A stretch of 41,946 bases of DNA from a virus (IMGVR_UViG_3300001242_000012); one strand, 5' to 3'; positions 129 to 17,623 are shown, counted from the stretch's first letter. The notes: generated by a model not told the origin, from the letters alone. Numbers and translations are program-made.

Positions 129-366
129 GTTATTCAATCCATGATGTTACTATGTTGTCTACGGGTGCATCTTTCTTTAACTTCTTTAATCTATTAGAAC
201 ATATCGGGCCATAGCTATTATGCTTTCTATATTTTCCTGCTAATAATACATGCTGGTGTGCACATTCAACAATATCGCAATTCTTGGTCCCACATGGACA
301 AACATGTACTATTATGCATGGTTTATTATAGTTTTTAGCTATATTACCACTATATGTAACTATCTG
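1..366. repeat. 101-bp exact direct repeat (1-101 and 266-366)
   Basis: Direct comparison: tcaacaatatcgcaatt...gtaactatctg is identical in both copies. Confidence 0.95.
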
Positions 367-381
367 GTCTACCTCAAACAT
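130..381 (-). CDS. small Cys-rich hypothetical protein (DQIV family)
   Basis: ORF with GGAGG RBS; FEVDQIV motif. Confidence 0.8.
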   Translation of the reverse strand: MFEVDQIVTYSGNIAKNYNKPCIIVHVCPCGTKNCDIVECAHQHVLLAGKYRKHNSYGPICSNRLKKLKKDAPVDNIVTSWIE

Positions 382-404: not shown

Positions 405-734
405 TAATGAGGGTGTGCTATTACGCCAAATGCTCTGAGGGTCTAGTATAGCATTGCACCATTAGACCTAACAAGAGCCCAATGATACTTGAGTATGCCG
501 CTTTCATAACAACCTTTGACTGTTGATTAAATCACGCGTCACTATACTAACTCTTTTCAGCTAACAGTTTTCCGTATGTTTCCCCTGTACGATATCTATA
601 CATGCTTGTTACATGATGTAGCTTTCACGTACTCGCAACTCCTTAGATGAGTCAATACCTTATACTTTGTTAAGTATTTTGATATCAACTTCGCTTTCGC
701 GAATGGCTGCCTCTAAGCCAACATTCCCTCATTA
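405..734 (-). ncRNA. candidate structured RNA containing a split 23S rRNA H42-H44 (L11-binding) mimic
   Basis: 9-bp terminal helix (405-413/726-734); AUGUUGGCUUAGAGGCAGCCAU near the 5' end and GCGUAAUAGC near the 3' end; no credible ORF. Confidence 0.75.
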
Positions 735-756
735 GTATTATTAACAAATCTACTAT

Positions 757-1029
757 CTAAAGTAAGTCTTCTAATGAATCAGCATCCGTGGCCTTTCTCA
801 CAGTCCATGAACACCAGGTACAGTCTTCTCTTACAAGACCACGTATAAATATGTGTACTCCATAACATACATCGTCTCCCATAGGTCTACAAGTTCTTCT
901 ACATGGTTTAATTTTTTCTATAATAAAAGCCTTGCCTAGCAGTTCTTCTTTGATTCCTTCAGTCCTATGAAAAATAACTATTTCGTCTATACTAAGACTT
1001 TCGTTACTTATACCCCCCATAATCACCAT
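757..1029 (-). CDS. Cys-rich hypothetical protein, tandem paralog of 1023-1289
   Basis: Shared DE(I/M)VIFH...C..C...CYG...WCSWTVRK...DSLEDLL. Confidence 0.8.
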   Translation of the reverse strand: MVIMGGISNESLSIDEIVIFHRTEGIKEELLGKAFIIEKIKPCRRTCRPMGDDVCYGVHIFIRGLVREDCTWCSWTVRKATDADSLEDLL

Positions 1030-3409: not shown

Positions 3410-3482
3410 TGGATGGCACGGTAAGAGTCGAACTTACGTCACCAGCTTGTGGGCCGGAGCTCTACCATTAAGCTACATGCCA
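3410..3482 (-). tRNA. tRNA-like RNA with a 6-nt anticodon loop (CCACAA), U73 and encoded CCA
   Basis: Acceptor UGGCAUG/CGUGCCA, canonical D and T arms, stem CCGGC/GCUGG. Confidence 0.75.
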
Positions 3483-3489
3483 GTGTATT

Positions 3490-3702
3490 CTAGCAACATC
3501 TATACATTTTACATGGTCTAAAATCAAAGAGTTCAATAAGCTCTCCGTGGTTGTAGCAACAGTACCAAGCTTCTATTCTATTATCTTCAACAATCTTAGT
3601 ATTAGGATTAAGCACTATACCACCGCTAGCTCGTTTATTAATACAGTGTCGGCAACTCTTACAAGACCTTAACTTGAGCATTCCTAATATTTTATTAAAC
3701 AT
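3490..3702 (-). CDS. Cys-rich hypothetical protein
   Basis: ORF with GAGGTG RBS. Confidence 0.65.
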   Translation of the reverse strand: MFNKILGMLKLRSCKSCRHCINKRASGGIVLNPNTKIVEDNRIEAWYCCYNHGELIELFDFRPCKMYRCC

Positions 3703-3711
3703 ATATTCACC

Positions 3712-4050
3712 TCATCCAAATATTAATTTTTCATCATCCTTAGGTTTTCTGAATGCATTCTCACATCTAAATGACATGTTATTCTTTTTAGGATCTAATG
3801 ATATAAATTGCCCATTACAATACTTATCATTAGTCATTAAACACACATAAAGGTTATGATCTTGTTTACTACTAAAAGGACATTTAACAATCTCATTTAT
3901 TATATAAGCAAGACCTATTCCGCATTTATCTCCTCCTAAAATACTGTCGGGGAGTGTATTAATATTAGATATTACTATCTCATCTACATTGAATGTCACT
4001 ATATATTCACCACCACTGATATTATAAATATCACTATAATGTGAAGCCAT
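3712..4050 (-). CDS. hypothetical protein
   Basis: ORF track; start uncertain. Confidence 0.6.
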   Translation of the reverse strand: MASHYSDIYNISGGEYIVTFNVDEIVISNINTLPDSILGGDKCGIGLAYIINEIVKCPFSSKQDHNLYVCLMTNDKYCNGQFISLDPKKNNMSFRCENAFRKPKDDEKLIFG

Positions 4051-4379
4051 TGATCAATACCTATGTTCATCCACCATAAGCCAGGTATATCCTCCCTAGG
4101 TATACGCTTAACATTGACCATTAACCACACTACAAGCTTCCTATCATCAATAAAGAAATGAGATATTAGTAATGCTAAGTACGTCCATATCAAAGTCATT
4201 TCACTATATCCGAATAGAGTTAATGTTAAAGTAGATAGCGTAGCATAAATGAGTGAATGTACATATCTAGCTTTCCAGTTAGTAAACTTATTAGTTGCTT
4301 CCCAATTAGTTTGTACTATCCAGTCATAGGCCATACTAACGAATAAAACTATGAATAATGTAGCATCAAGTTTCAGCAT
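3999..4379 (-). CDS. DUF3307-like membrane protein
   Basis: SHFFIDD and GIDQWLH motifs, hydrophobic helices; start moved to the RBS-preceded ATG. Confidence 0.75.
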   Translation of the reverse strand: MLKLDATLFIVLFVSMAYDWIVQTNWEATNKFTNWKARYVHSLIYATLSTLTLTLFGYSEMTLIWTYLALLISHFFIDDRKLVVWLMVNVKRIPREDIPGLWWMNIGIDQWLHIIVIFIISVVVNI

Positions 4380-4578
4380 ATAATTCCTCCATATCAATTT
4401 TAATAAAATACTTATTGAATAAGGCATCATCATCTATATCCAAACCATCACTAATATTATAAGAGTTGTTATCGTCAGCTACAACTCTATATTTTCTCAT
4501 GCTTTCATATATTGGATAGATTTTATCTACTGTTAAGCGTCCATCGGCTCTTAGCTTCGCTATAGCATATATTTTCAC
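4366..4578 (-). CDS. small TxDKIY-family protein
   Basis: LTVDKIY...DDN...F.KYF. Confidence 0.75.
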   Translation of the reverse strand: MKIYAIAKLRADGRLTVDKIYPIYESMRKYRVVADDNNSYNISDGLDIDDDALFNKYFIKIDMEELYAET

Positions 4579-4587
4579 ACAATCACC

Positions 4588-4788
4588 TCATTCTCGATTA
4601 TAGATATCTATAATATATATAAAGTATCTATTAAACAATTCATCTGTATCGGTATCCAAGCTATCAGACACTCTGCAAATAGAAGCATCGTCTGATTTTA
4701 TCCAGTACCTATCTCCAAGTCTGTTCATATCATAGATTTTGTCAATAGTTAATGTCTCAGATACATTACGTTTTGCTACTGCTAACAT
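4588..4788 (-). CDS. small TxDKIY-family protein
   Basis: LTIDKIY...SDD...FNRYF. Confidence 0.75.
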   Translation of the reverse strand: MLAVAKRNVSETLTIDKIYDMNRLGDRYWIKSDDASICRVSDSLDTDTDELFNRYFIYIIDIYNRE

Positions 4789-4804
4789 TTTCCCCTCCTT
4801 ATAA

Positions 4805-4887
4805 TGGTGGAGAGAGTCAGAGTTGAACTGACACAGCCGAAGCCACGGTTTTACAGACCGCTTCCCTTACCAATGGGATATCTCTCC
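4805..4887 (-). tRNA. tRNA-Tyr(GUA)
   Basis: Cloverleaf with long variable arm, loop CUGUAAA, ACCA end. Confidence 0.92.
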
Positions 4888-5157
4888 ATCTAATGGTTCA
4901 AATCTATTGCCACATGTATGATACAAGCTTTCACATATTGTAACTACTTGCCCGGTACACTTACTACCTATACAATTATAATATCCTGACGGAAATCTTG
5001 TGTTGATTGTACCATCAAGTACGTGTTTGCATGTTCTAATGCTTGATATAACTACCGTAGTTCCCTTCTCTATTACTGAGAAACGGCGGTAATTATCTGT
5101 AATAGGACAGGAAAATATAGTTTTAACGATTTGGTCTACTTCGTATATCGGATACAT
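4867..5157 (-). CDS. Cys-rich DQIV-family protein
   Basis: YEVDQIV...KCTGQ...C. Confidence 0.75.
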   Translation of the reverse strand: MYPIYEVDQIVKTIFSCPITDNYRRFSVIEKGTTVVISSIRTCKHVLDGTINTRFPSGYYNCIGSKCTGQVVTICESLYHTCGNRFEPLDGEISHW

Positions 5158-5159
5158 TA

Positions 5160-5471
5160 TTAGTCTCCTGTAAATATATTGCCTATTTCCTCATTAGATG
5201 GTATAAAGTGGTTTGAACAAAATTGTTTATTACTTCCGCATATTTTTAATAACTGCCCATTACACTTTTGATTAAAACACATATAAGAACCATCTGGTTG
5301 CACTATTATGTCCTTGCGACCTGCTATTATTAATGGACAGTTACTAGCTTTATTAACAACTATATGATCTCCTTCTTCTATTTTAATAAGTCTATTACCT
5401 GTCGCTATTCTGATCTCACGAGTATTTAATAATATCTGGTCTTTAGAGAATTTAATAACATTCACCACCAA
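5160..5471 (-). CDS. Cys-rich DQIV-family protein
   Basis: KDQIL...CFNQKCNGQ...CSNHF. Confidence 0.75.
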   Translation of the reverse strand: MVVNVIKFSKDQILLNTREIRIATGNRLIKIEEGDHIVVNKASNCPLIIAGRKDIIVQPDGSYMCFNQKCNGQLLKICGSNKQFCSNHFIPSNEEIGNIFTGD

Positions 5472-5480
5472 GTTTATTTA

Positions 5481-5555
5481 TGGTGGACCCTGAGAGACTT
5501 GAACTCCCAACCAGCCGGTTATGAGCCGGATGCTCTACCGTTGAGCTAAGGGTCC
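5481..5555 (-). tRNA. tRNA(CAU), probably Ile2 type
   Basis: Loop CUCAUAA; the GGACCCU acceptor resembles Firmicute tRNA-Ile2; ACCA end. Confidence 0.88.
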
Positions 5556-5644
5556 AAGTGTCAGCCTTGCCCAGGGGCTGACGATAGTACTTAGAAGATT
5601 TACCTAGTCCCTCAACTAGGCTGCTAATGGTAGGTCTTTGGCTA

Positions 5645-5728
5645 TGGCGGAGGGCACAGGAGTCGAACCCGCTAGGCTTTTACACCCGACTGTTTTCAAG
5701 ACAGTTTGCCACCGTTGGCCTACCCTCC
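5645..5728 (-). tRNA. tRNA-Ser(UGA)
   Basis: Loop CUUGAAA, long variable arm, G73 CCA. Confidence 0.9.
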
Positions 5729-5743
5729 ATATTAAATTTAGTT

Positions 5744-5821
5744 TGGCTGGCATAGCTGGGCTCGAACCAGCAACCTCTTGATTAACAGTCAAGTGCTAAC
5801 TACCTATTGAGCTATATGCCA
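5744..5821 (-). tRNA. tRNA-Asn(GUU)
   Basis: Loop CUGUUAA, G73 CCA. Confidence 0.9.
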
Positions 5822-5888
5822 AGGTTAGTGGGTGTTGCGATCACCCACTAGGTAAAACCTGATATGGTTTAGGACCAGCAGTAGTCTT

Positions 5889-5964
5889 TGGTACTGAGGA
5901 CTGGAGTCGAACCAGCTACCACCTAATTAAAAGTTAGGTGCTCTTCCAGATGAGCTACCTCAGT
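5889..5964 (-). tRNA. tRNA-Lys(UUU)
   Basis: Loop CUUUUAA, ACCA end. Confidence 0.92.
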
Positions 5965-6161
5965 ATACTACGATTAATAAGAACAAATTGATCATCAGCC
6001 TCAAGTATTATATCTGTTGGAAAATTAAAGTTGTTATCATCAGATATATAGTATGCACTTTCTGTCTCAAAATTATTTGGTATGCCATACAGTATAGGAT
6101 ACATTTTGTCTTTTGTAAAGAAACTGTATTTATCCGTAATGCACACAATACTTCCTTGCAT
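5955..6161 (-). CDS. small TxDK(M)Y-family protein
   Basis: FTKDKMYPIL; start moved to the ATG after GAGGTG. Confidence 0.7.
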   Translation of the reverse strand: MQGSIVCITDKYSFFTKDKMYPILYGIPNNFETESAYYISDDNNFNFPTDIILEADDQFVLINRSILR

Positions 6162-6171
6162 ACCAACACCT

Positions 6172-6351
6172 CTAATCAATAAATATAAAATTGCTATCTC
6201 CATCTATCCAATTGGTTGATATCTGTTCGTCTTCATCATCAATTATATAATGATATAAACTATCTGATGATCTAACTAGTATAGGATACATTTTGTCTCG
6301 TGTCAGGAAGGTATATATACCAGTATTACATATTACATATTTAGGTTGCAT
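6172..6351 (-). CDS. small TxDK(M)Y-family protein missed by the ORF track (59 aa)
   Basis: Manual translation MQPKYVICNTGIYTFLTRDKMYPIL... Confidence 0.7.
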   Translation of the reverse strand: MQPKYVICNTGIYTFLTRDKMYPILVRSSDSLYHYIIDDEDEQISTNWIDGDSNFIFID

Positions 6352-6355
6352 ATTG

Positions 6356-6550
6356 TTACCTCAAATATGGATCTAGATCTTCATCACATATCCGACATAT
6401 CTTTAGAACTGGATGATAGGCTGGTGTTCCATCTGGGAACTTGTGATTGCATCCTCTAGTTAGTTTCCGTAACTTTGAGTCAATATTGATTAGAAACTTT
6501 CCACGCTCTTCCTTTAAAGCCATTACCTCATTTATTGTCCTCTGATTCAT
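6356..6550 (-). CDS. hypothetical protein (C.H...C.IC)
   Basis: ORF with AAGGAG RBS. Confidence 0.65.
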   Translation of the reverse strand: MNQRTINEVMALKEERGKFLINIDSKLRKLTRGCNHKFPDGTPAYHPVLKICRICDEDLDPYLR

Positions 6551-6570
6551 AATGATTCTCCTTAGTCATT

Positions 6571-6645
6571 TGGTTGCAGAGGTGGGACTCGAACCCACAA
6601 CCTTTAGCTTATGAGGCTAACGAGCTACCTTTGCTCTACTCTGCG
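6571..6645 (-). tRNA. tRNA-fMet-like (CAU)
   Basis: C1:A72 mismatch, GAGC/GCUC D stem, loop CUCAUAA. Confidence 0.85.
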
Positions 6646-6646
6646 A

Positions 6647-6719
6647 TGGAAGGGAGAGAAGGAATCGAACCTTCATAGCTAGGGTCTTCCTAGGATGTTG
6701 CCTGTTACATCATCTCCCT
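6647..6719 (-). tRNA. tRNA-like RNA with an aberrant anticodon arm (5-nt loop AAGAC), U73 and encoded CCA
   Basis: Acceptor AGGGAGA/UCUCCCU, T arm GAAGG-UUCGAUU-CCUUC. Confidence 0.7.
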
Positions 6720-6887
6720 ATGATATTCATCATAAACCTTTTCATACTCTCTTTGTTCTTCCCAAGACTTAAAGTTCTTAGTTACTTCACAGTCCTCACA
6801 TACTAATGCTTTCACATCATCGAACGTTATATCTTTTAATACCATTGTCTTTTTACATATAGGACATTTTAATTTTTTATATTTCAT
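6705..6887 (-). CDS. small Zn-ribbon protein
   Basis: CPIC...CEDC. Confidence 0.7.
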   Translation of the reverse strand: MKYKKLKCPICKKTMVLKDITFDDVKALVCEDCEVTKNFKSWEEQREYEKVYDEYHREMM

Positions 6888-6910
6888 TCGAGATCTCCTA
6901 AAAATATTTA

Positions 6911-7073
6911 TATTTGGGGAGGGATTAACGATTCTTCACCCTCGATTCCTGCCCTATACGACCATGATGTATAGCTCCGTATTGGCTTCGCTAACAGGTA
7001 TAGTTCTTTTCTTTGTCATAGACTTTTAATCTATTACCAACTCTTTGATCGTATGACTACTATCACCCAAATA
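6911..7073 (-). ncRNA. candidate multibranch structured RNA
   Basis: Terminal helix UAUUUGGG/CCCAAAUA plus several internal helices; no ORF. Confidence 0.45.
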
Positions 7074-7080
7074 ATTGTCC

Positions 7081-7146
7081 ATGGGAGAATAGTTAAGTAG
7101 GGTATATTATCTGTACGTAGAAGTAACCCTACTTTACACTACCCAT
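7081..7146 (-). ncRNA. Y RNA-like unit A (short, tRNA-less), just downstream of the Ro60 gene
   Basis: AUGGG/CCCAU outer stem, UAGUGUA, 9-bp inner stem, UACUUC, UAUUCU. Confidence 0.7.
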
Positions 7147-7152
7147 GAAATC

Positions 7153-8769
7153 TTAATATCTGTTTATAGTTTCAAGCACATTAGTGTTGTTGACTTCGCA
7201 TGTTTTAACGAAGTCAAAGATCTTTTCTGACCAACCAGCTATCCTATATACGTTAGGTTCATCCATAGGTACCGGTGTAGTACCATATGAAGATAAATCA
7301 ATAGTATATAGTTTGATATCTGGATTTATTGTTCTCCTATAGTCTTTCAGTAAATCAGCTAATGCCTTTCTGCTGCCACCACCATAACCCCAAGCAGTAA
7401 CACCATAGCATTGTTCGTCAGAGAAGATGAAGATTCTATCCGCAAAGGTTTTCTTCTTCAGTAGCTCTTCGACTACACGGTAAGCATTTGTAGACATACC
7501 TTTGGTATCTGCCCTAGCTATCCTATTCATGTTAGTGAATATGGAGTCAGCCGGATTAAGGTTAACAGGGCACCAATCAGTACCGAAAGCACCTACTATA
7601 GAAGACTCACAGAAACCATGAGCCATAGCACATAGTAAATTAGCAATGTTGGCACATGATACCTTGCTTCTTTCTGATACAGCTTGTGACATAGAACCAG
7701 AATTATCAGCTGCAAGCAGTGTTATACCTTCAAGCATAGGGACATTCTGTACACTTATACTAATGGCCTCAGATAATGCTGCAAGTACTTTAGATATATT
7801 AGGATTAGTACCAATTAAGCTTTCCATTTCACGATAAGCACTATAAAATCTAAATGGAAGCTGCTTAGATCTAAGAACTTGATTAGGGTCCTTCAATCTC
7901 TCAATGACACTACCTATACATTTAGCATCAGCATTAATGATGTTCCTTATATTACGGAGCATAGCCATGAAAGGTAAGTTAAGTTCATCCCATACTTCAG
8001 GCTTGTTACCAAACTTACTTACAGCCATCTCCCAGGTCATATCACCAGCCCTAATAAGATGTCTAGCTTCTTCGAAGTTATCTATCTTAGCAAACTCTTT
8101 ATGAGCTTTGTGCAGCACCATAACGTCATCGTTCTCTATATCATGACACATATACTTAAAGATAGCATCGTGCAGTACATCACTTGGTTTAGCACGACAT
8201 ACTCTGATTACATCTTTAATCTTAACTGATTTACTCCTGTCATACTTTAAGAAATGATACTCACCGAAAGTATTCAATACATCGGAGATACCTTTCTTAA
8301 GTGAGTTAGGGAAGGCATGAGTGCCACCTGCTTGACCTTTATCACCTATGTCACCATGTTTACTAACCCAGTAAGCAACTAGTTCAGCAGGTTCATCAGC
8401 ACGCTTTAATATACGAGGAACCCATTTACGAACGAATGGCTTACACTCATTGATTGCTGCAGCTTCACCCAGTAGTACTATAGGTATAGATCTTAAGTAC
8501 ATTTCATTTCTAGCATAAGCAGCTAGCTTTAAGATAAACTCAGGATCTATAGCTGCTACTTGCTTAATGTCTCTGATAATACCAGCAAGAGTTTCAGTGT
8601 TTTTCTGGTAGTAAGTATCAGACAGTAAGCAGTTACATACTTTCTTATACAGTCTAGTTTTAGCATCCATTTCGAAAGCTACACCACCTGCGAGGTTCTT
8701 AATTACATCAGGTCTGTTGACCACACTAGCCAATCTACTGGCAGAATTAAATTTAGACATTAGTGTCAC
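7153..8769 (-). CDS. rsr: Ro60/TROVE-domain RNA-binding protein with C-terminal vWA domain
   Basis: N...GG.AF, DPEFILKLA.YAR....LRS, PFMAMLRNIRN, SKQLPFRFYSAY, DNSGSM (MIDAS), IFSDEQ, IAGWSEKIFDF. Confidence 0.95.
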   Translation of the reverse strand: MTLMSKFNSASRLASVVNRPDVIKNLAGGVAFEMDAKTRLYKKVCNCLLSDTYYQKNTETLAGIIRDIKQVAAIDPEFILKLAAYARNEMYLRSIPIVLLGEAAAINECKPFVRKWVPRILKRADEPAELVAYWVSKHGDIGDKGQAGGTHAFPNSLKKGISDVLNTFGEYHFLKYDRSKSVKIKDVIRVCRAKPSDVLHDAIFKYMCHDIENDDVMVLHKAHKEFAKIDNFEEARHLIRAGDMTWEMAVSKFGNKPEVWDELNLPFMAMLRNIRNIINADAKCIGSVIERLKDPNQVLRSKQLPFRFYSAYREMESLIGTNPNISKVLAALSEAISISVQNVPMLEGITLLAADNSGSMSQAVSERSKVSCANIANLLCAMAHGFCESSIVGAFGTDWCPVNLNPADSIFTNMNRIARADTKGMSTNAYRVVEELLKKKTFADRIFIFSDEQCYGVTAWGYGGGSRKALADLLKDYRRTINPDIKLYTIDLSSYGTTPVPMDEPNVYRIAGWSEKIFDFVKTCEVNNTNVLETINRY

Positions 8770-8784
8770 TCCTTATAATTTGAT

Positions 8785-8871
8785 ATGAGAGAATAAATGA
8801 ATAGGGTAATTTGATGTTTCAATAAGATACTAATTTGTATATATGAAGTAACCCTATCCTACACTACTCAT
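8785..8871 (-). ncRNA. Y RNA-like unit B (short)
   Basis: AUGAG/CUCAU outer stem with the conserved motifs. Confidence 0.7.
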
Positions 8872-8879
8872 AAATTTGT

Positions 8880-9017
8880 ATGGGAGAATAATCACATAGA
8901 GTAGCTTTTAGTGCTCTAACCAACTGAGCTACAGAACCTTTTGATGAGGCCCTGGTAGGACTCGAACCTACGACCACTCGATTACAATTCGATGAAACTC
9001 TATGCTACACTACCCAT
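8880..9017 (-). ncRNA. YrlA-type Y RNA unit C (circularly permuted tRNA module)
   Basis: T arm GUAGG-UUCGAGU-CCUAC precedes a loop-closed acceptor stem, then D arm UAGCUCAGUUGGUUAGAGC. Confidence 0.85.
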
Positions 9018-9024
9018 AATATTG

Positions 9025-9162
9025 TATCAGGAAGAATTGTTCGTTAAGAGTACATAGTGCTCTACCAGCTGAGCTACGGAGCTATCAGTTGCTCTGATGG
9101 GACTCGAACCCATGACCACTCTATTAAATGTAGAAGTAACTCTTAACTACACTGTCCTGATA
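9025..9162 (-). ncRNA. YrlA-type Y RNA unit D
   Basis: T arm AUGGG-UUCGAGU-CCCAU, closed acceptor stem, D arm UAGCUCAGCUGGUAGAGC. Confidence 0.85.
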
Positions 9163-9170
9163 ATAAGCTT

Positions 9171-9311
9171 AGATTAGGAAGAATAAGCTATAAGGGTACA
9201 TTACGTTGCCTTGACTACTTGGCTAACCCACTATGGTTGTGGGTGAGAGATTTGCACTCCCGATCACGGCTGAAGATGCGAAGTAACCCATTATATACAC
9301 TATCCTAATCT
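9171..9311 (-). ncRNA. YrlA-type Y RNA unit E
   Basis: T loop UGCAAAU, ACCCAC/GUGGGU closed acceptor stem, D arm UAGCCAAGUAGUCAAGGC. Confidence 0.8.
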
Positions 9312-9319
9312 TAAAATTG

Positions 9320-9459
9320 TTAGGGAGAATTAAGCGATAAGAGACTATCTAAACCAGTGCCTTGGACCGCTTGGCTAACCCGTGATAGCCACGGGTGGAG
9401 GATTTGAACCTCCGGATGCTGGTGCCCTATTGAAGTAACTCTTATCTACACTACCCTAA
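9320..9459 (-). ncRNA. YrlA-type Y RNA unit F
   Basis: GGAGG-UUCAAAU-CCUCC, ACCCGUG-GCUAU-CACGGGU, D arm UAGCCAAGCGGUCCAAGGC, CUGGU/ACCAG stem. Confidence 0.88.
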
Positions 9460-9467
9460 TAGTTTGC

Positions 9468-9534
9468 GATAGGAGAATAATTAATAGTAGGGTGGCACTT
9501 TTATCAGAAGTAACCCTACATCACACTACCTATC
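9468..9534 (-). ncRNA. Y RNA-like unit G (short)
   Basis: GAUAGG/CCUAUC outer stem with the conserved motifs. Confidence 0.7.
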
Positions 9535-9541
9535 AATATTT

Positions 9542-9625
9542 TAATGAGAGAATAATTGGACAGAGAGCTTTGTATATAAATAAGAAGTTTATTTTTGAAG
9601 TAACTCTGCCCTACACTGCTCATTA
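9542..9625 (-). ncRNA. Y RNA-like unit H (short)
   Basis: UAAUGAG/CUCAUUA outer stem with the conserved motifs. Confidence 0.7.
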
Positions 9626-9769
9626 ATTACGTTGTGCTGGTGGTGCTCCTGGTCTAGAACTTACAGGAGCAGAATTGAGTCCTTGCTTTCTGACTCTACC
9701 CTGTGTAAGTAGAGCTTTATTAGGTTTAATACTATCATGTTTGAATAGATTTAACAACCATTTAAGCAT
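9623..9769 (-). CDS. small basic protein, 48 aa (MLKWLLNLFK...RPGAPPAQRN)
   Basis: Manual translation; AAGGAUGGU RBS-like sequence. Confidence 0.55.
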   Translation of the reverse strand: MLKWLLNLFKHDSIKPNKALLTQGRVRKQGLNSAPVSSRPGAPPAQRN

Positions 9770-9785
9770 AATACCATCCTTTCAT

Positions 9786-9873
9786 TGGAGGAGAGTGTAG
9801 GATTTGAACCTACGCAGGTGTTACCCTGACCTTTGATTAGCAATCAAGTACAATGCCACTCTGTCAACTCTCC
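9786..9873 (-). tRNA. tRNA-Ser(GCU)
   Basis: Loop UUGCUAA, long variable arm, CCA end (U73). Confidence 0.85.
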
Positions 9874-9878
9874 ATATC

Positions 9879-9956
9879 ATATGACCATTTGTGTCACGAA
9901 TCAGCCCACTCTGGACACCCTTCGCACCTCTGGCTACTCCCGCAGCCTGGTCATAT
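9879..9956 (-). ncRNA. candidate GC-rich three-way-junction RNA
   Basis: 9-bp terminal helix, GGCUGC-GGGA-GUAGCC, GUGUC/GACAC. Confidence 0.45.
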
Positions 9957-9965
9957 AAATTAAAC

Positions 9966-10054
9966 TGGCGACCGGGTGAGGATTTGTACCTCACTTCTAG
10001 TATATACTCTCCCAACTGATATATGTCGCTGCAGTTCGATTTGATATACCCGGT
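9966..10054 (-). ncRNA. degenerate tRNA-like element
   Basis: ACCGGG/CCCGGU, T arm UGAGG-UACAAAU-CCUCA, GCCA end; no D or anticodon arm recognisable. Confidence 0.5.
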
Positions 10055-10143
10055 AAAAGTATACTCTAAGCATTTTTGTTATAAGTTACTTATTGCGCTA
10101 ATAGGGCTTATAACAAAAACCATAGGTGATTGTTTTAACTTGA

Positions 10144-10362
10144 TTAAACTACCGGCCTTATAACTGTTTTGAATAGGCAGGATTCAAACCTGCTTGGTCC
10201 GGAATACGGTTCAGCTACCTTCGGTTTATCACGCCGATGCTGTACCCTATCGTATCTTATATGTTTTGGTAACTTGACATCCTTACTCTTGGCCTTCGGT
10301 TCAGGACTTCTTATATCTCTGCATATAGTAACTTTAGGTGTTCTCACCACGCCGCTATTCAA
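10144..10362 (-). CDS. basic hypothetical protein
   Basis: ORF track. Confidence 0.5.
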   Translation of the reverse strand: MNSGVVRTPKVTICRDIRSPEPKAKSKDVKLPKHIRYDRVQHRRDKPKVAEPYSGPSRFESCLFKTVIRPVV

Positions 10363-10382
10363 AAGTCAAAGAGGTTTACTAC

Positions 10383-10457
10383 TGGTCTGGGTGGCAAGGC
10401 TCGAACTTGCGACCACCTGCTCCCAAGGCAGGCATGCTACCACTGCACTACACCCAG
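10383..10457 (-). tRNA. tRNA-Pro(UGG)
   Basis: Loop CUUGGGA, C1:G72, ACCA end. Confidence 0.93.
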
Positions 10458-10462
10458 ATGGT

Positions 10463-10539
10463 TGGTGCACCATGAAGGACTTGAACCTTCAACCTACCGA
10501 TTAAGAGTCGGTTGCTCTAGCCAATTGAGCTAATGGTGC
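10463..10539 (-). tRNA. tRNA-Lys(CUU)
   Basis: Loop CUCUUAA, ACCA end. Confidence 0.93.
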
Positions 10540-10542
10540 ATG

Positions 10543-10748
10543 TAAGCGGGTAAGGATTTGCACCTTACATGTCATCAGGAGCTTATCCCTGATGGTCTAG
10601 CTGTTTTTACCTCTAGACAAGGATCTATGAACTCAATAGCTATCTAGAATTACTATATAGCGTCTACTATTGCCCTAAGAAAGGTATGCATCCCTTTTGG
10701 AAAACAGGCTTTACCACCGATTAAGGTGTCTATTCTCGCCACCGCTTA
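10543..10748 (-). ncRNA. 206-nt expanded tRNA-Leu-like RNA
   Basis: UAAGCGG/CCGCUUA, T arm GUAAGG-UGCAAAU-CCUUAC, long variable-arm-like hairpin, large inserts. Confidence 0.65.
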
Positions 10749-10753
10749 TTTAC

Positions 10754-10829
10754 TGGAGCCTCCTACAGGACTTGAACCCGTAACCCACTCCTTACAAAGG
10801 AGTCACTCTACCAATTGAGTTAAGGAGGC
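10754..10829 (-). tRNA. tRNA-Thr(UGU)
   Basis: Loop UUUGUAA, UCCA end. Confidence 0.93.
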
Positions 10830-11043
10830 AATTTCTACAAAATATTCTTTGAATGATGTATCAGCATCTGTATTACTATAAGCTGTAATGCAATATGTAT
10901 GATCATTATCACCTGTAAAATGATAATAACCATTCTTTTTAATTATCTTATATATTTTATCAACAGTTAATATTCTACTCATGCCACGTATACATGCCGC
11001 ATTAATAGTTTGGCCACTTATGCTGATTGTATTGATAACTATT

Positions 11044-11244
11044 TCACCTCACCGTATATAGTTCTATGAAATAATATTTGAAAGAAGTGTCTGTAATGTA
11101 ACTATCCGCTTTACATATATAATAGTTATGTCCATTGTCACCGACAACACGTAGTTCATTTCTATCGTCTTGGTAAAGTTTATATATTTTATCTACGGTG
11201 AATATATTAGTAGCCCTGTTCTTACATACCGTATATACTTTCAT
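11044..11244 (-). CDS. small TxDKIY-family protein
   Basis: FTVDKIY...GDN...FKYYF; start moved to the RBS-preceded ATG. Confidence 0.75.
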   Translation of the reverse strand: MKVYTVCKNRATNIFTVDKIYKLYQDDRNELRVVGDNGHNYYICKADSYITDTSFKYYFIELYTVR

Positions 11245-11259
11245 ATACAACCCCCTATC

Positions 11260-11425
11260 TGGTGCACCTGGCCGGTATCGAACCGGCTCTCGTTTCCTAA
11301 GCATAAGATCAAGGATTACGCGCTTCCTTACTCAACTTCACCGAGCGGTTTTTCAGTGCCTCTGCAACCTTATCTCTGCAACCAGTCTCCGTTTTACTGT
11401 GCTCTTTCCATTGAGCTACAGGTGC
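11260..11425 (-). ncRNA. 166-nt tRNA-like RNA with the anticodon arm replaced by a 112-nt segment
   Basis: GCACCUG/CAGGUGC plus ACCA, D arm GCUC-AAUGGAAA-GAGC, T arm GCCGG-UUCGAUA-CCGGC. Confidence 0.8.
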
Positions 11426-11631
11426 ATTAATATAAAGAAAGCATTAAATAAACTATCTATTTTAAGATTACTATCAAGTGAGATTCTAATCTTATGTTCA
11501 GAATCAGATGTAATAGTATAATATTCTTCTTCAGTATCTATATGTAATTCAGTTTCATAAATTTTATCTATAGTGATCATGTAAACATTTGAATTAATAT
11601 GTTTGACAGATCTTTTACAGACTATTAGCAT
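11416..11631 (-). CDS. small TxDKIY-family protein
   Basis: ITIDKIY...SDS...FNAFF. Confidence 0.7.
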   Translation of the reverse strand: MLIVCKRSVKHINSNVYMITIDKIYETELHIDTEEEYYTITSDSEHKIRISLDSNLKIDSLFNAFFILMHL

Positions 11632-11896
11632 CTTGTTCCTCCCATATTAGAACCTCATCTAATTTTGGCTCTCTGAAGTAGGTATGACACCAATAACATC
11701 CACGTATATTTATCTCAAGCTTTGCACATTCACTATCCATACTGCAAACATCAGCATGAAGGCATCTACGTACTTTATCAATTAGTACAGCAGTACCTTG
11801 TAAAATTGGTACTATATCTTCTTTGTCAAGGAGCAATATGAAGTCTGCTTCAACTATCACTATCTGGTCAGTCTCTAACATAGTTATCTCCTTCAA
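11615..11896 (-). CDS. Cys-rich DQIV-family protein
   Basis: ETDQIV...GTAV.I..VR.C...C.....WCH..FREP. Confidence 0.75.
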   Translation of the reverse strand: MKEITMLETDQIVIVEADFILLLDKEDIVPILQGTAVLIDKVRRCLHADVCSMDSECAKLEINIRGCYWCHTYFREPKLDEVLIWEEQDANSL

Positions 11897-12125
11897 ATAC
11901 TAGTTCTTCGTTGACCTTAGGAACTCTAAATTTATGAGCACAGAAGAATGTTTTATTGTTCACTCTATATATAGTCATACTACATCTTTTTTCGTAGGAA
12001 CATCGCATACCACATTTCCGTACATCATTTATGACTACTGCAGTTCCAGCTTTTATTGTAATATGATTTCCGGATCTCTTATAATACCATAGACTCTCAT
12101 TAGCGACCATTATTCTATCTATCAT
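11868..12125 (-). CDS. Cys-rich protein, paralog of 11615-11896
   Basis: GTAVVINDVRKC...FCAHKFRVP. Confidence 0.7.
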   Translation of the reverse strand: MIDRIMVANESLWYYKRSGNHITIKAGTAVVINDVRKCGMRCSYEKRCSMTIYRVNNKTFFCAHKFRVPKVNEELVFEGDNYVRD

Positions 12126-12369
12126 GGTATATTACCAGATCTGTATCTGTATCGATAGTATACATTGGATCATCATGAGTGTCTGTTAACTTGAAACCAA
12201 ACATTCCACATAGTATATCAGCTACTTCTGTGATACTCCCATGCTTGTACTCTATGTAATTAAGAGCTTCTTGGTACATATATCTAAGTGATTCAATATC
12301 AAATTCTTTCTCATGAGTGATAAGCTGAGTTTTAAAGTATCCATCTACTTCATAGGTAATCATGATCAC
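12115..12369 (-). CDS. hypothetical protein
   Basis: ORF track, operon packing. Confidence 0.65.
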   Translation of the reverse strand: MIMITYEVDGYFKTQLITHEKEFDIESLRYMYQEALNYIEYKHGSITEVADILCGMFGFKLTDTHDDPMYTIDTDTDLVIYHDR

Positions 12370-12385
12370 TGCTCCTAGTTTATAT

Positions 12386-12459
12386 TGGCATGGTAGTTAG
12401 GAATTGGACCCAAATCTACGGTGTTGGAAGCCGTTGTTCTACCGTTGAACTACTACCAC
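12386..12459 (-). tRNA. tRNA-Trp(CCA)
   Basis: Loop UUCCAAC, G73 CCA. Confidence 0.85.
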
Positions 12460-12681
12460 ATGTAGGCGGTATAACCGCCTATAATTGCTTAGCAATAAAT
12501 TCTCTAAGATCATTACTAATCTTAGTAAAGTTTTCTTCCGGTACTTCTATTAAATATCCACCTTTGATCTGTAGCCAGTAACCATTGTCTTTCTTAATGG
12601 TATGAACTACATCACCATATTTAGTTTTCAATGGGTAAATGTTTCTAATGGCGGTTTTTAAATCAATTGAATGATTCCCCT

Positions 12682-12930
12682 TTACTGGTTCTGAATGTCA
12701 TCAATCTTCGGATAATAGAATACAACGAAACCTTTACCATCTGGTTCTGATTCAGCAGAAACAAGTTCAACATTAGATAGTCTTCCATCAAATGTTTCTC
12801 TATGTAGCCCTGATAAAAGGTCTCGATCACTTATCTCATCTAATACCTCAACTAGATGTCCATAGTCATATGGATTTCTTACCTCTGCTTCTATCATTCC
12901 TTCTAGTGTGTAGTACATCCTTATCTTCAT
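12682..12930 (-). CDS. acidic hypothetical protein
   Basis: ORF track. Confidence 0.65.
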   Translation of the reverse strand: MKIRMYYTLEGMIEAEVRNPYDYGHLVEVLDEISDRDLLSGLHRETFDGRLSNVELVSAESEPDGKGFVVFYYPKIDDIQNQ

Positions 12931-12956
12931 ATTGAATCACTACCTTTGCGGTATCA

Positions 12957-13265
12957 TTAAATATCATAACATCTTTTATATCTAACATAACTTTGATATA
13001 TCCTTAATGATTGCCTTTCTTTGGGTTTAAGAATACTATTCTTCTTCTCCCATTTACACATCCAACAGCTACAGGAGGTATTATGTTTAGCAAGTCTACC
13101 TGGCTGTTCAATATATCTATCAGAATAATTTCGCATATTACGCCAAGATCTTTGGCCTTCCATCCTTCTATTTCTACGGTAGTTTATTATGCGCATTCTT
13201 TGATGCCTCTTATATGCTCTACCTCGTTTATTAGGTACGAAACCAAAGAGTAAGTATACCTCCAA
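12957..13265 (-). CDS. basic hypothetical protein (CSCWMC motif)
   Basis: ORF track. Confidence 0.6.
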   Translation of the reverse strand: MEVYLLFGFVPNKRGRAYKRHQRMRIINYRRNRRMEGQRSWRNMRNYSDRYIEQPGRLAKHNTSCSCWMCKWEKKNSILKPKERQSLRIYQSYVRYKRCYDI

Positions 13266-13294
13266 CTATAACACCTCCTGACTTTGATCACATC

Positions 13295-13690
13295 TTAAAA
13301 ATCATCATCAATGGCTAGTAACGTGTCTCTTTTCTTCTGAGCTAATGTCTTTTCCACCCTATTAGACTTGATATAGGATCTATAGAGATCCATAGCTATT
13401 TCTCTTAGGTCTATTCCTGGTTCATAGGTAACGAATTTGTAAGTTAGTTCGTGCCAGCATTCAAAGATGCAAGATTCTTTCTTACGTTCTAACCTTATAT
13501 AATAATCACATTCGTCAAGATTTCCCCAGTATAGATTTTTTTTGATGTCAGAAGAGACTTCATCTTCGATTGCCAATCGAAGATTATAATCGATATAAAT
13601 GTACTTTACCGTGATATCACTTCCAGTAGTAACACTTCCTCCAATTAACTTCTGTGTAGTATTCTTGGTTACGTTTAACCCAAGCTTCAC
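13295..13690 (-). CDS. hypothetical protein
   Basis: ORF track. Confidence 0.6.
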   Translation of the reverse strand: MKLGLNVTKNTTQKLIGGSVTTGSDITVKYIYIDYNLRLAIEDEVSSDIKKNLYWGNLDECDYYIRLERKKESCIFECWHELTYKFVTYEPGIDLREIAMDLYRSYIKSNRVEKTLAQKKRDTLLAIDDDF

Positions 13691-13976
13691 TACATTCGTT
13701 TACTACCTTTATCCATGTCTCATTATTTTCGTCATAACGATAAGCATAATGAGGTACATATCTATTGGCTAGAAATAACCATTCACCTAATGTACAGTAG
13801 CTTTTATAATCTACTATATCATAACTACAGAAGTATTTTTTATATACCTTACCATACGGTACATCATGTAACTTGCGTACTTTCTTATTAGCTAATCTCT
13901 TAGCATACTTTCTGTAGTGTGGGCCACTATCACCCACACATGGATTGTGTCTATAACTTCTTGACACTATGACCAC
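13617..13976 (-). CDS. basic phage protein (SRSYR...KRLANKKVRK)
   Basis: ORF with GGGAGGTG RBS. Confidence 0.7.
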   Translation of the reverse strand: MVIVSRSYRHNPCVGDSGPHYRKYAKRLANKKVRKLHDVPYGKVYKKYFCSYDIVDYKSYCTLGEWLFLANRYVPHYAYRYDENNETWIKVVNECSEAWVKRNQEYYTEVNWRKCYYWK

Positions 13977-14031
13977 CTCCCTTAGAAGGTGTTACGTCGC
14001 ATCCTTTCTTGCATCCGCTTCACTCCTCTAA

Positions 14032-14697
14032 CTATTCATCAGTTGCAGAATCAGGATCATAGAATGATAATGTAGCAGACTGTCCATCAGCTCTACCCCT
14101 CATATAACCTTTGGTAGCACAAGACATAGTAGTGAATGCATCTTTTGTACCTAATACATCATTAGTATATGAGGCCATATTACCAATCTTGATGTTTAGA
14201 TTCTCTGAAATCTTAGATAGGTCTTGGTTAGCACCCATATAAGCAAATGTCCACTTATTCGAACTGTTACATTGTTGTATTAGTTCTGCAAGACGGTTCT
14301 GGGTATATTCTTTTGAAGAATTTTCTTCCCCATCACTAATGATAGTAACCAGTATAGAATCGTTCTCATTACCAGATAAACTCTTGATATGCTCAATTGC
14401 ATATCCTACAGCATCATACATTGCTGTTCCACCATTAGGCTTATAGGATTCGCTTGTAAGCTCTTGTAATGAATCTAATGATTCACTAAGGAATACTGGA
14501 TTAACTGTATGGTTAAACTTTATGAGCGAAACACTGACATTATTATTAGCTTGCTCACTTTTGAGCATCTGAACCTGCTCGTTGAATCCTGATATAGTTT
14601 GTTCTTCTACGGGTTTCATTGAACCACTCTGGTCTAGTACATAAACAATGTGGGTTCTCCCACCTACTGACGCATTATAAGCATCTACTAAATCCAA
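14032..14697 (-). CDS. von Willebrand factor A domain protein
   Basis: VLDQSGSM MIDAS, GGTAMYDAVG, IISDGEENSS. Confidence 0.92.
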   Translation of the reverse strand: MDLVDAYNASVGGRTHIVYVLDQSGSMKPVEEQTISGFNEQVQMLKSEQANNNVSVSLIKFNHTVNPVFLSESLDSLQELTSESYKPNGGTAMYDAVGYAIEHIKSLSGNENDSILVTIISDGEENSSKEYTQNRLAELIQQCNSSNKWTFAYMGANQDLSKISENLNIKIGNMASYTNDVLGTKDAFTTMSCATKGYMRGRADGQSATLSFYDPDSATDE

Positions 14698-14710
14698 TTA
14701 GCAACTCTCC

Positions 14711-15214
14711 TTATTTAATTTCCTTAAGCTGTTTAGCAAGTTGTTTAACTTCATCCATCACATATTCAAAGTTTCTGTATACTTTTTCATCTTCTATTGG
14801 TAAAGGAATCATTGGAAATCTCTCTGATACTTTATTAGCGATTTCAATAAGACCTGGTACGTAATCAAAGGAATGAGCTGTATCAAAACCAAAGTACCAG
14901 TAGCCCTTAAGCATACCTTCTATGTGTGGCCCTTCCTCTGAATATGTAATGCCACCATGACATTGAAGACTATCAGTTTTACTGTAATCATCAATATGAG
15001 AAACTCTATGTAGTGGATGATTGGGCTTAACTCCTACATAACCATTAAGATTTTTCATTCTAGGATTTCTATGTATAATACAATGCATATCTTTATCGAA
15101 CCATTCGAAATGAGGTAGTTCATTTTCCCATTCCATTTCCACTATAGAACCTCCATATTCATAATGCCCTGACATTATGTCAGGGCATTCGTGATAATAC
15201 TTTGTCGGAAGCAT
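14711..15214 (-). CDS. conserved phage protein; true start probably ~80 nt downstream of the track start
   Basis: NGYVGV...CHGGITYS...YFGFDTAH. Confidence 0.75.
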   Translation of the reverse strand: MLPTKYYHECPDIMSGHYEYGGSIVEMEWENELPHFEWFDKDMHCIIHRNPRMKNLNGYVGVKPNHPLHRVSHIDDYSKTDSLQCHGGITYSEEGPHIEGMLKGYWYFGFDTAHSFDYVPGLIEIANKVSERFPMIPLPIEDEKVYRNFEYVMDEVKQLAKQLKEIK

Positions 15215-15501
15215 TATATTTTATGTTAAGTTTGCACACGGAGCAATTTATTTTTGTACAAAGAATGTACTACAGTATTTGAAGTGTGATGTATGCTCAG
15301 TATGAATAAGTAAGTGTAACTAAGGAACAGTGAAGTATAACTTATACTTTGTTTAGATAATAAGTTTTCTTCTTGTAAGAACCATGTTGTTCCTATTAAT
15401 TTAATGTGTATTACGTATCAAATTGATTCGTGTTTGATCCACTACACCTGTCCTCTGTTCGCCAGGTTGAACCGCTCACACTATGCATCCCTAACAAAGA
15501 T

Positions 15502-15530
15502 ATTTTACCACATTTATGATTCAATTTCAA
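15502..15530 (-). promoter_or_regulatory. sigma-A-type promoter
   Basis: TTGAAA-17 bp-TAAAAT with extended TG. Confidence 0.7.
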
Positions 15531-15772
15531 GTGTTTTTAGTAATTATATTCTTTAGCTTGAATATTGGATATACCAAACACAATATTAACGTTGATGTTA
15601 CACAAGCTACTAAAGTTCCTGGATATAGTAGGTCTGTCCATAGTGTAGTACTTCTGCCTCTTCCGTATACTAGCACTAATACTATGCCAATCGGAAGTAA
15701 TATTATGCCGAAGATATAAGCTAATGGGTATAAGATCCACTTAGGAACCAAATCGTCAATACCAAAGTTCAT
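15527..15772 (-). CDS. small membrane protein
   Basis: Two hydrophobic segments. Confidence 0.6.
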   Translation of the reverse strand: MNFGIDDLVPKWILYPLAYIFGIILLPIGIVLVLVYGRGRSTTLWTDLLYPGTLVACVTSTLILCLVYPIFKLKNIITKNT

Positions 15773-16072
15773 TTACATTACCATCTCTTCGAACCTAGTC
15801 TTAACTTTCTCGTTAGCAGCCCTAGAACTTTCAAGATTAACTACCAGATCATTAAGATCAGTAATCTGAGACCTAGCAACTACAATTCTGCTATCAATCT
15901 TGCTGTTGATTTTATTAATCTTAGTGACAATGCGCTTGAAGATATTCAGTTGGTTCTCAACCTTACGATCAAAATCCCTGAGATCCTCATTCAAATCCCT
16001 AATGATTGTCTCTGTATGAGACTTAATCCTTCTATTCCTCCACCATGCTAATAAACCAAACAAAACTATCAT
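15773..16072 (-). CDS. membrane-anchored coiled-coil protein
   Basis: ORF with GGGGAG RBS. Confidence 0.65.
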   Translation of the reverse strand: MIVLFGLLAWWRNRRIKSHTETIIRDLNEDLRDFDRKVENQLNIFKRIVTKINKINSKIDSRIVVARSQITDLNDLVVNLESSRAANEKVKTRFEEMVM

Positions 16073-16155
16073 CTCCCCTATTTAATTTTCGGAGGTGAAG
16101 GAAGGATAGGTAGTCTATAGCCTACACTAACCCAACTTCACCAATTTATTATGAC

Positions 16156-16252
16156 GTCTAAGGAATCGAACCTCTAAGATTTGGCACCAGCCACCTTTAG
16201 ATTTTATCTCTCGGTTAACGGATTCGAACCGTTACTATGCTACCAGCAACAT
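16156..16252 (-). ncRNA. two tandem mini D-loop/T-loop hairpin pairs
   Basis: A GCUGGU-loop hairpin followed by a GGUUCGA(A/U)UCC hairpin, twice. Confidence 0.45.
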
Positions 16253-16551
16253 CATAAATTTATTTCATCATCAAGTATATGGCGCAAACCTTTCCCTCCG
16301 ATCAATATCGTTCTATCTAATTTCGGAGAGCAAACTATATAACATATTTTACAAGGATGCTCCTTCTTCATTCCTTTAGCTAATACATAACAGACTGTTC
16401 CATTAGGAATATTAGTATCCTTGTCATTAACAGTATGGTCATAGAAATCTATCACTGCATTCGGATAACCTAATTCTCCAGCTAAAGTATGGTGGTAAGG
16501 ATACCTTTCGCCATTATCTTTGATTATAACAAGTTGATCTATCTGATACAT
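16252..16551 (-). CDS. DQIV-family protein
   Basis: YQIDQLVII. Confidence 0.7.
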   Translation of the reverse strand: MYQIDQLVIIKDNGERYPYHHTLAGELGYPNAVIDFYDHTVNDKDTNIPNGTVCYVLAKGMKKEHPCKICYIVCSPKLDRTILIGGKGLRHILDDEINL

Positions 16552-17601: not shown

Positions 17602-17623
17602 AATGTCCTCACTAAAGTTTTAA

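Follow-up and report, generated by a model that had tools for sequence, protein, structure and literature searches.

The genome of a groundwater phage (244 kb; IMGVR_UViG_3300001242_000012) includes a 41,946-nt stretch, the window, whose coordinates are used throughout this work. All genes of the window lie on the minus strand, along which a replication/nucleotide block (DNA polymerase, primase, UvrD, ThyX, RecA, NrdD/NrdG) is followed by 14 tRNA genes, the gene for a ClpP-like protease, small Cys-rich open reading frames (ORFs) and, at minus-strand positions 405-734, a 330-nt RNA element with minus-strand ORFs on both sides. This element, in which no minus-strand ORF of at least 60 aa was found, is our subject: it is a stand-alone copy of the GTPase-associated centre (GAC) of 23S rRNA and belongs to a widespread family of phage RNAs. 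The minimum free energy (MFE) of the whole RNA is -94.2 kcal/mol (z = -3.75). Seven public groundwater DNA sequencing runs contain the stretch or part of it, and no RNA run is listed with it; contigs from four of the seven contained nothing but identical DNA or short, unrelated fragments and showed no sequence variants in the RNA.

The GAC of bacterial 23S rRNA (the end of helix 42, H42, with H43 and H44; E. coli 1051-1108) is the 58-60-nt domain that binds uL11 and thiostrepton. It is a small autonomous folding unit, and uL11 binding requires its tertiary fold (PMC6239185). With E. coli 23S rRNA (L079) as the reference for identity counts, a first strand of the phage RNA is identical to H43 (AUGUUGGCUUAGAAGCAGCCAU, nt 1057-1078) at 21 of 22 positions, the sole change being A1070 to G, and the strand with the H44 loop is identical to the rRNA motif at 10 of 10, the equivalents of A1067 (714) and A1095 (422) being kept. 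These matches, and the perfect 9-bp terminal helix enclosing them, had been pointed out in an earlier note on this DNA and are upheld here. So is its remark that no other rRNA lies nearby, since a large subunit (LSU) rRNA match was found nowhere in the 244-kb genome; within the window, the H43 22-mer occurs once with up to three mismatches, against 0.00 expected (100 shuffles). The note also described a single insert of about 265 nt between the two motifs. This has to be revised: a third GAC strand, CAUCUAAGGAGU, divides the intervening sequence into insertion A (53 nt) and insertion B (211 nt). The third strand, hereafter strand 2, contributes A1088 and the 1082:1086 pair, together with one side each of two helices: the 3′ side at the base of H43 and the 5′ side of lower H44.

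With the three strands in place, the junction pairs 1057:1081, 1058:1080, 1059:1079 and 1082:1086 are all canonical, and the canonical residue is found at U1060, A1088, G1071, G1091-C1100, G1093, U1094 and A1098. Like the ribosomal domain, the RNA would form a helix-closed three-way junction; conservation or covariation is seen for the 1071 and 1072 triples, for U1060/A1088 and for the 1082:1086 pair. In contrast to that domain, it lies outside any rRNA; a short helix whose sequence is free (9 bp here, 3-14 bp in relatives) stands in for H42; the 1090/1101 pair is swapped, to U and A respectively; G occupies the position of the rRNA-invariant A1070; and two large insertions (at 1078/1079 and 1090/1091) and a UUUG linker have been added. 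Positions 1101-1103 read ACA, a signature of the phage family, where rRNA has UCA.

To define this family, we scanned IMG/VR with the H43 20-mer, allowing R at position 1070. Seventy-two loci share the 20-mer and all, except one real 23S rRNA and a few truncated loci, show the same three-strand layout: between the two arms of a closing helix lie, in order, H43 and CAUYUAARGAGU, then 41-358 nt of inserted sequence, then UUUG-GCGUAAUAGC-ACA. The window RNA matches every element of it (the three strands, ACA at 1101-1103, UUUG ahead of G1091, the insertion that follows U1090 and a closing helix of variable sequence). Neither the ACA nor the UUUG signature is present in rRNA. The sequence of the closing helix differs in almost every lineage and is not rRNA-like, while its pairing is kept. 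As helix length was used to define the RNA ends, it is the contrast with a displaced arm that counts here and not the percentage paired: uninterrupted pairing averages 7.5 bp with the arms in place and 0.7 bp once the 3′ arm is shifted by 14-29 nt.

Non-circular evidence is provided by the pairs that join one strand to another, which were tallied over 69 distinct members. Pair 1057:1081 is A-U in 56 members and C-G in 13; 1058:1080 is U-A in 63, G-C in 3, U.G in 2 and A-U in 1; and 1082:1086 is U-A in 33, C-G in 31 and A-U in 4. Junction pairs are canonical in 68-69 of the 69 members. The residue at 1072 is linked to the 1092-1099 pair in every member (C with C-G in 58, U with U.G in 8 and U with U-A in 3), and U1060, A1088, G1071, G1091-C1100, G1093, U1094 and A1098 are invariant. 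The identities of this base triple, of the triple of 1071 with 1091-1100 and of the U1060/A1088 interaction are those of the L11-RNA crystal structures of Conn and Wimberly. Because the inter-strand pairs and the 1072/1092-1099 triple covary, the strands appear to be under selection to fold like the GAC, and the proposal that all three are held to its tertiary architecture is, on comparative sequence grounds, well supported. The homologue and covariation check proposed in the earlier note is thus borne out, as is its view of the RNA as a stand-alone copy, to which the compensatory changes across the phage family, the non-rRNA closing helix and the lack of rRNA in the genome all point. Position 1070, called invariant (A) in rRNA (PMC6239185), is G in the window RNA and in 18 of the 69 members, a replacement which suggests that selection acts on the fold more than on each contact with a factor.

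Three IMG/VR virus contigs of 15-42 kb (L051, L022 and L057) carry a stand-alone GAC copy of 59 nt that has no insert, reads UCA at 1101-1103 as rRNA does and is closed by a helix of 5 bp, ACUAG/CUAGU; it could represent either the family in minimal form or an independent capture. A strict pattern applied to a collection of species-representative genomes returned 33 real 23S rRNAs and nine stand-alone GAC copies. The latter are mostly from Clostridia-class contigs (Eubacteriales, Acutalibacteraceae), with one from Muribaculaceae and one from an unclassified metagenome-assembled genome (MAG); they include L280 (the isolate Flintibacter muris DSM 110149), L256, L267, L271, L278, L281, L291 and L294, and are probably located in prophages. 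Real 23S rRNAs recovered in the same search (among L255-L296) read GAGU-AUCGUAAYAGAUCA in H44, a natural variant of 1090-1101, and come from Zixibacteria, Planctomycetota, Omnitrophota, Ignavibacteriales, Desulforudis, a Clostridia MAG, Spirochaetota and two MAGs labelled Methanosarcinales/Methanolinea.

Members of the family also occur, unannotated, in cultured phages. Although blastn of the whole window RNA gave no match among these, a 54-nt 5′ query from the relative L005 identified copies in the Rak2-like jumbo phages Pectobacterium CBB, Cronobacter GAP32, Yersinia fHe-Yen9-03/04, Serratia BF and Erwinia pEa_SNUABM_12/19/44/47/49/50 and Kaldavass, in Xanthomonas XbC2, XaC1 and XacN1, and in Acinetobacter ME3, Ralstonia RSP15, Aeromonas 4_4572 and several Pseudomonas phages. 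Complete elements were extracted from seven cultured phages. A profile hidden Markov model (HMM) built from CBB, XacN1, XaC1, fHe-Yen9-04, Kaldavass, BF and L005, with the window RNA excluded, gave a single nhmmer match in the 244-kb genome, which covers the RNA end to end, H43 through the 3′ strand (E=1.3e-16; hmm 4-224 of 225). The window RNA fits a subclass with a short insertion B, comprising CBB, XacN1, XaC1, fHe-Yen9-04, Kaldavass, BF, ME3, L005 and L077, whose architecture, P_B1 / GA-GA / P_B2 / CAGGGG...CCCU / P_B3, it shares; like its cultured short-B relatives it sits between small ORFs. GenBank coding sequences annotated as "hypothetical protein" overlie the RNA in Erwinia phage Kaldavass (L253:1531-1623) and in Pseudomonas phage Milchi and are probably spurious calls. 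In XacN1 the gene just upstream of the copy (L247:828-1478) is annotated as a 2′-5′ RNA ligase, a single case not repeated at the other loci.

Insertion A (702-650), between the equivalents of U1078 and C1079, is the rarer of the two insertions. It occurs in eight distinct family members, in each of which it opens with a GNRA-capped hairpin of differing stem. A second hairpin follows directly in seven of the eight, L009 having the single GNRA-capped hairpin only.

Insertion B (637-427), also called domain B, makes up two thirds of the RNA and ends in the UUUG linker (430-427). Because a MAFFT alignment of five members misplaced the inserts and RNAalifold on it gave wrong pairs in the core, the helices were parsed by anchors in 16 relatives (Table 1). 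P_B1 covaries, with four sequence types (UGC/GCA, GUC/GAC, UUC/GAA and AUC/GAU), as does P_B2, with 12, while P_B3, of 7-9 bp, has a distinct sequence in each of 10 short-B members including that of the window. The GGGG/CCCU helix and P_B3 are also recovered by unconstrained MFE folding of the window's insert. The arrangement UGC-GA-G[P_B2]CA-GGGG ... CCCU-CA-GA-GCA is conserved, its 3′ GA being invariant and the 5′ dinucleotide GA in 14 of 16 relatives and AA in two. A kink-turn (k-turn) has tandem sheared G.A pairs beside a helix and a 3-nt bulge on one strand, and a k-junction adds a third helix on the non-bulged strand; we infer that the base of domain B carries the sequence signature of such a k-turn-like three-way junction, of the k-junction type. 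Three helices had been proposed in the insert by the earlier note: AUACUU/AAGUAU survives as the tip of hairpin A2 and CAUG/CAUG falls inside the P_B2 domain in the MFE fold, whereas GGUCUA/UAGACC does not stand, relatives showing that UAGACCCU is the end of P_B3, followed by GA and then by the CCCU strand.

Table 1. Features of the RNA element and of its surroundings, in window coordinates
Feature	Coordinates	Strand	Remarks
Closing helix P1, 5′ arm, UAAUGAGGG	726..734 (734-726)	-	Pairs with 413-405; stands where the end of 23S H42 would be
GAC strand 1, AAUGUUGGCUUAGAGGCAGCCAU	703..725	-	H43 hairpin with the 1067 loop, 23S 1056-1078 equivalents; A1067 equivalent 714; G711 in place of A1070
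Insertion A, hairpin A1, UCGC-GAAA-GCGA	691..702	-	GNRA-capped; enters between U1078/C1079 equivalents; MFE fold
Insertion A, hairpin A2	650..690	-	10-bp stem 690-681/659-650 and 6-bp tip 677-672/667-662; MFE fold
GAC strand 2, CAUCUAAGGAGU	638..649 (649-638)	-	23S 1079-1090 equivalents; covariation with strand 1 and within strand 2, 69 members
Insertion B	427..637	-	211-nt structured domain between U1090/G1091 equivalents; helices by comparison and MFE
P_B1	637-635/433-431	-	Insertion B
Tandem GA	634-633 and 435-434	-	Insertion B
P_B2	631-628/591-588	-	Insertion B; UACG/CGUA
GGGG/CCCU helix	585-582/441-438	-	Insertion B
P_B3, UAGUAUAGU/GCUAUACUA	549-541/452-444	-	Insertion B
GAC strand 3, GCGUAAUAGCACA	414..426 (426-414)	-	H44 hexaloop, 23S 1091-1103 equivalents; A1095 equivalent 422
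Closing helix P1, 3′ arm, CCCUCAUUA	405..413 (413-405)	-	Perfect complement of the 5′ arm, 9 bp
Downstream ORF, 83 aa, Cys-rich	130..381	-	AGGAGG and ATG start 23 nt past the 3′ arm of the RNA; no family match
Upstream ORF, 90 aa, Cys-rich	757..1029	-	Ends 22 nt before the RNA; paralogue of ORF 1023-1289; no family match
14 tRNA genes	3410-17698	-	
Ro60 homologue	7153-8769	-	TROVE (1.4e-33) and Ro60 vWA; inside the tRNA cluster, 6.4 kb from the RNA

Recurrent motifs of domain B are the GA/GA junction, CAGGGG...CCCU and NUUAAK, and both ends of the insertion (UGCGAG... and ...GACCCUCAGAGCAUUUG) recur in other IMG/VR contigs. The pattern ATYTAARGAGTTGCRAG was discarded as a means of finding the family: most of its 88 matches are due to chance and lack the GAC motifs. 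Apart from the element of relatives described next, a search of the inserts for other pieces of 23S rRNA gave only matches of 9-11 nt, at chance level, and a likeness of GGGCGAAGCCUAGAC to the tip of H89 was judged superficial.

Longer members of the same subclass, in which insertion B reaches 330-358 nt, carry within domain B an exact 12-13-nt core of the sarcin-ricin loop (SRL; H95 of 23S rRNA), AGUACGAGAGGA. The carriers are L076/78, L160, L165, L167, L169, L171, L172, L186, L198 and L219 (for example L160:6881-7303, L198:5601-6011 and L076:8410-8795, minus strand), with variants in L211 (a one-base change) and L074/75 (G2655U). The stem of the SRL hairpin covaries (UUCCA/UGGAA, UUGCA/UGCAA, CCGC/GCGG), and these longer relatives appear from their sequence to copy both halves of the ribosomal factor-binding site. 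The SRL core is absent from the window RNA; whether a plain hairpin of the latter corresponds to the SRL hairpin is ambiguous by position, as the flanking NUUAAK recurs several times. A separate SRL elsewhere in the 244-kb genome was also considered and rejected: the sole 13-mer with two mismatches falls within a zinc-ribbon ORF and is no more than chance would produce.

The window RNA has no counterpart in Rfam 15, either at the gathering score or, over positions 250-900, at E<=10. Classification as GOLLD, ROOL, the L10 leader, LSU rRNA or a group I intron is not supported by any match at this threshold, and the kinship to GOLLD raised by the earlier note, like any to ROOL, is not sustained. 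The RNA resembles ROOL and GOLLD in being a large structured phage RNA with no assigned function, often beside tRNAs; in contrast to them, it has no Rfam model match at E<=10, and we know of no rRNA copies in ROOL or GOLLD. Bacterial and phage Y RNAs (YrlA), which mimic tRNA and bind Ro60, are likewise non-coding RNAs that imitate a part of the translation machinery, and this phage encodes Ro60; the phage RNA, in contrast, imitates rRNA and not tRNA. The closest concept is that of ribosomal-protein leaders (such as the L10 leader RF00557, and those with uL1 and uS15 sites), which are also extra-ribosomal RNAs imitating an rRNA protein site; their mimicry was reviewed by Meyer 2018, as cited in PMC10931766. 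They are cis-regulatory, lie upstream of ribosomal-protein genes and have only a loose likeness to rRNA. The phage RNA differs in being near-identical to rRNA in its loops, in lying beside no ribosomal-protein gene and in the lack of an Rfam match. A search of the full-text literature found no published description of a phage-encoded GAC or SRL copy, and the family is absent from Rfam 15 and, so far as we found, from the literature.

Across the family, tRNA genes lie within 3 kb of 53 of 81 loci; all of them share the strand of the RNA, and many begin or end 0-10 nt away from its closing helix, an arrangement that fits a stable RNA released by tRNA-processing enzymes. We examined 50 phage records with the mimic, the window's own genome and 49 others (26 of the 50 being at least 90% complete), for protein partners. 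Phage-encoded uL11 is found in none of the 50, TROVE/Ro60 in two (none of the 26 near-complete records) and HD_4 in four, of which only one exceeds the Pfam cut-off. Accordingly, none of these proteins is associated with the mimic, and the mimic would be independent of Ro60. The ClpP-like neighbour proved too widespread to yield relatives of the locus by synteny. Since no neighbour is conserved across subclasses and these candidate partners are so sparse, whatever the RNA binds is most likely a host component.

Several other features of the region deserve mention. The gap of about 250 nt after the Ro60 gene (6900-7152, minus strand) is non-coding, opens with a long imperfect stem, CAUGGGUAGUGUAAAGUAGGGU ... 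ACCCUACUUAACUAUUCUCCCAUGG, has no Rfam match and is a candidate Y RNA. At the edge of the tRNA cluster nearest the GAC RNA, the tRNA-like gene 3410-3482 (minus strand) receives no assignment from ARAGORN (a 2-nt "anticodon", ac) and 51.8 bits from the Rfam tRNA model; it appears to be an odd tRNA or a tRNA mimic. The 198-aa protein encoded at 18461-19057 (minus strand) has an HD_4 domain, of the RelA/SpoT-type hydrolase fold, and may be a phage alarmone hydrolase. Among the small Cys-rich ORFs (757-1029, 1023-1289 and 130-381, minus strand), the two upstream are paralogues with 55% identity, and none has a Pfam or PHROGs match.

How might such an RNA act? Released from the phage minus-strand transcript, its three strands would assemble into the uL11-/thiostrepton-binding fold, closed by a private helix and with two side domains emerging, and this fold would be presented in trans to a protein that normally reads the GAC on the ribosome. 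As a more elaborate member of the family, the window RNA would use its GNRA hairpin and k-junction domain to brace or decorate the replica. The first candidate partner is uL11, which would be that of the host since none of the 50 mimic-bearing records encodes one; it would be the most economical choice because it recognises the fold itself and contacts H43, as does thiostrepton, the uL11 contacts lying at the H43 base (PMC1635324). A free uL11-RNA particle would then draw uL11, or the factors that dock on uL11 and the GAC (RelA, translational GTPases), off ribosomes during infection. We hold this proposal, a free-standing, uL11-centred GAC mimic acting in trans, with middling confidence. Binding of uL10, also suggested by the earlier note, is unlikely: the uL10 site needs almost all of H42, including a conserved core (PMC1635324), and this is missing from the phage RNA, where a free-sequence helix takes its place.

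A number of observations weigh against the uL11-centred proposal. Insertion A leaves the core at 1078/1079, on the strand at the H43 base where the uL11 contacts sit (PMC1635324), and hairpins A1 and A2 may interfere with the uL11 face. The window RNA is 2.7 kb from the nearest tRNA (upstream, same strand), so that tRNA processing does not explain its excision. It ends 23 nt before the ribosome-binding site and start of ORF 130-381, making a role within an mRNA possible. No protein conserved near the RNA across subclasses was found. Finally, the optional SRLs of longer relatives point to factor- or toxin-directed mimicry and not to simple uL11 titration.

This last point leads to an alternative that we regard as possible though doubtful, namely that the RNA is bait for a host defence toxin acting on the rRNA of the factor-binding site, or a direct trap for RelA or a translational GTPase without uL11. 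Among toxins, VapC20/26 act on the SRL and the ADP-ribosyltransferase Tre23 on H44, and phage tRNAs that counter tRNA-targeting defences offer a parallel for a family located among phage tRNA genes, whose longer members hold the exact SRL core in a covarying hairpin. The tips are mostly kept (A1067 in 61 of 69 members and A1095 in 63), but they vary more than in rRNA, and A1070 is replaced in the window RNA. Moreover, the latter lacks an SRL, the only SRL-like 13-mer of the genome being that in the zinc-ribbon ORF, and to our knowledge no defence system active in phage infection targets the GAC.

It is unlikely that the GAC fold is a compact scaffold only and that domain B, or A and B together, does the work by binding another ligand or protein or by joining a larger RNA assembly. 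Domain B is indeed large and conserved, with covarying helices and recurrent motifs, and modules such as the SRL and extra hairpins are swapped between relatives. The GAC core is, however, the only part common to all members: domain B shrinks to 41-47 nt in L009 and L050 and is missing altogether from L051. In addition, loop nucleotides of the core have stayed the same as in rRNA, which a scaffold alone would not require.

Quite unlikely, too, is a leader or intergenic regulator acting in cis, in which a host protein on the GAC fold would control translation or stability of the 83-aa ORF, much as in the ribosomal-protein leaders with their imitated rRNA sites. The spacing to the AGGAGG-ATG of that ORF is suggestive, the next ORF of Rak2-like cultured phages starts 30-40 nt past the RNA, and no convincing promoter or terminator of its own was found for the RNA. 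Yet the flanking ORFs are not homologous between distant carriers, none of them is a ribosomal protein, and most family members are flanked by tRNA genes instead of ORFs.

An inert leftover of a captured host 23S fragment, perhaps with intervening sequences, would account for the 21/22 and 10/10 identities but is very improbable, being contradicted by the compensatory changes in all core pairs and the base triple, by a closing helix and ACA and UUUG signatures foreign to rRNA, by conservation across unrelated phages of Proteobacteria and Firmicutes and by the lack of any other rRNA in the genome or of a group I intron match.

Taking the family as a whole, we consider it fairly probable that large phages make a free-standing, protein-binding replica of the GAC, in some cases together with the SRL, which would capture uL11, RelA, GTPases or rRNA-targeting toxins and so take over or protect translation. 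Mimicry of tRNA, and loose mimicry of rRNA sites by ribosomal-protein leaders, are already known; what is new, so far as we found, is a near-exact copy of a functional centre of the ribosome, kept by covariation and carried as a separate gene in hundreds of phages. The family represents a natural set of GAC variants with insertions for structural biology, and since the subclass of the window RNA is found in jumbo phages in culture, on Pectobacterium, Xanthomonas, Yersinia, Serratia, Erwinia, Cronobacter and Acinetobacter, its role can be tested directly at the bench. If uL11, or proteins that read uL11 and the GAC, do bind it, the RNA would give the phage a lever on the stringent response, on factor recruitment and on defences aimed at the ribosome.

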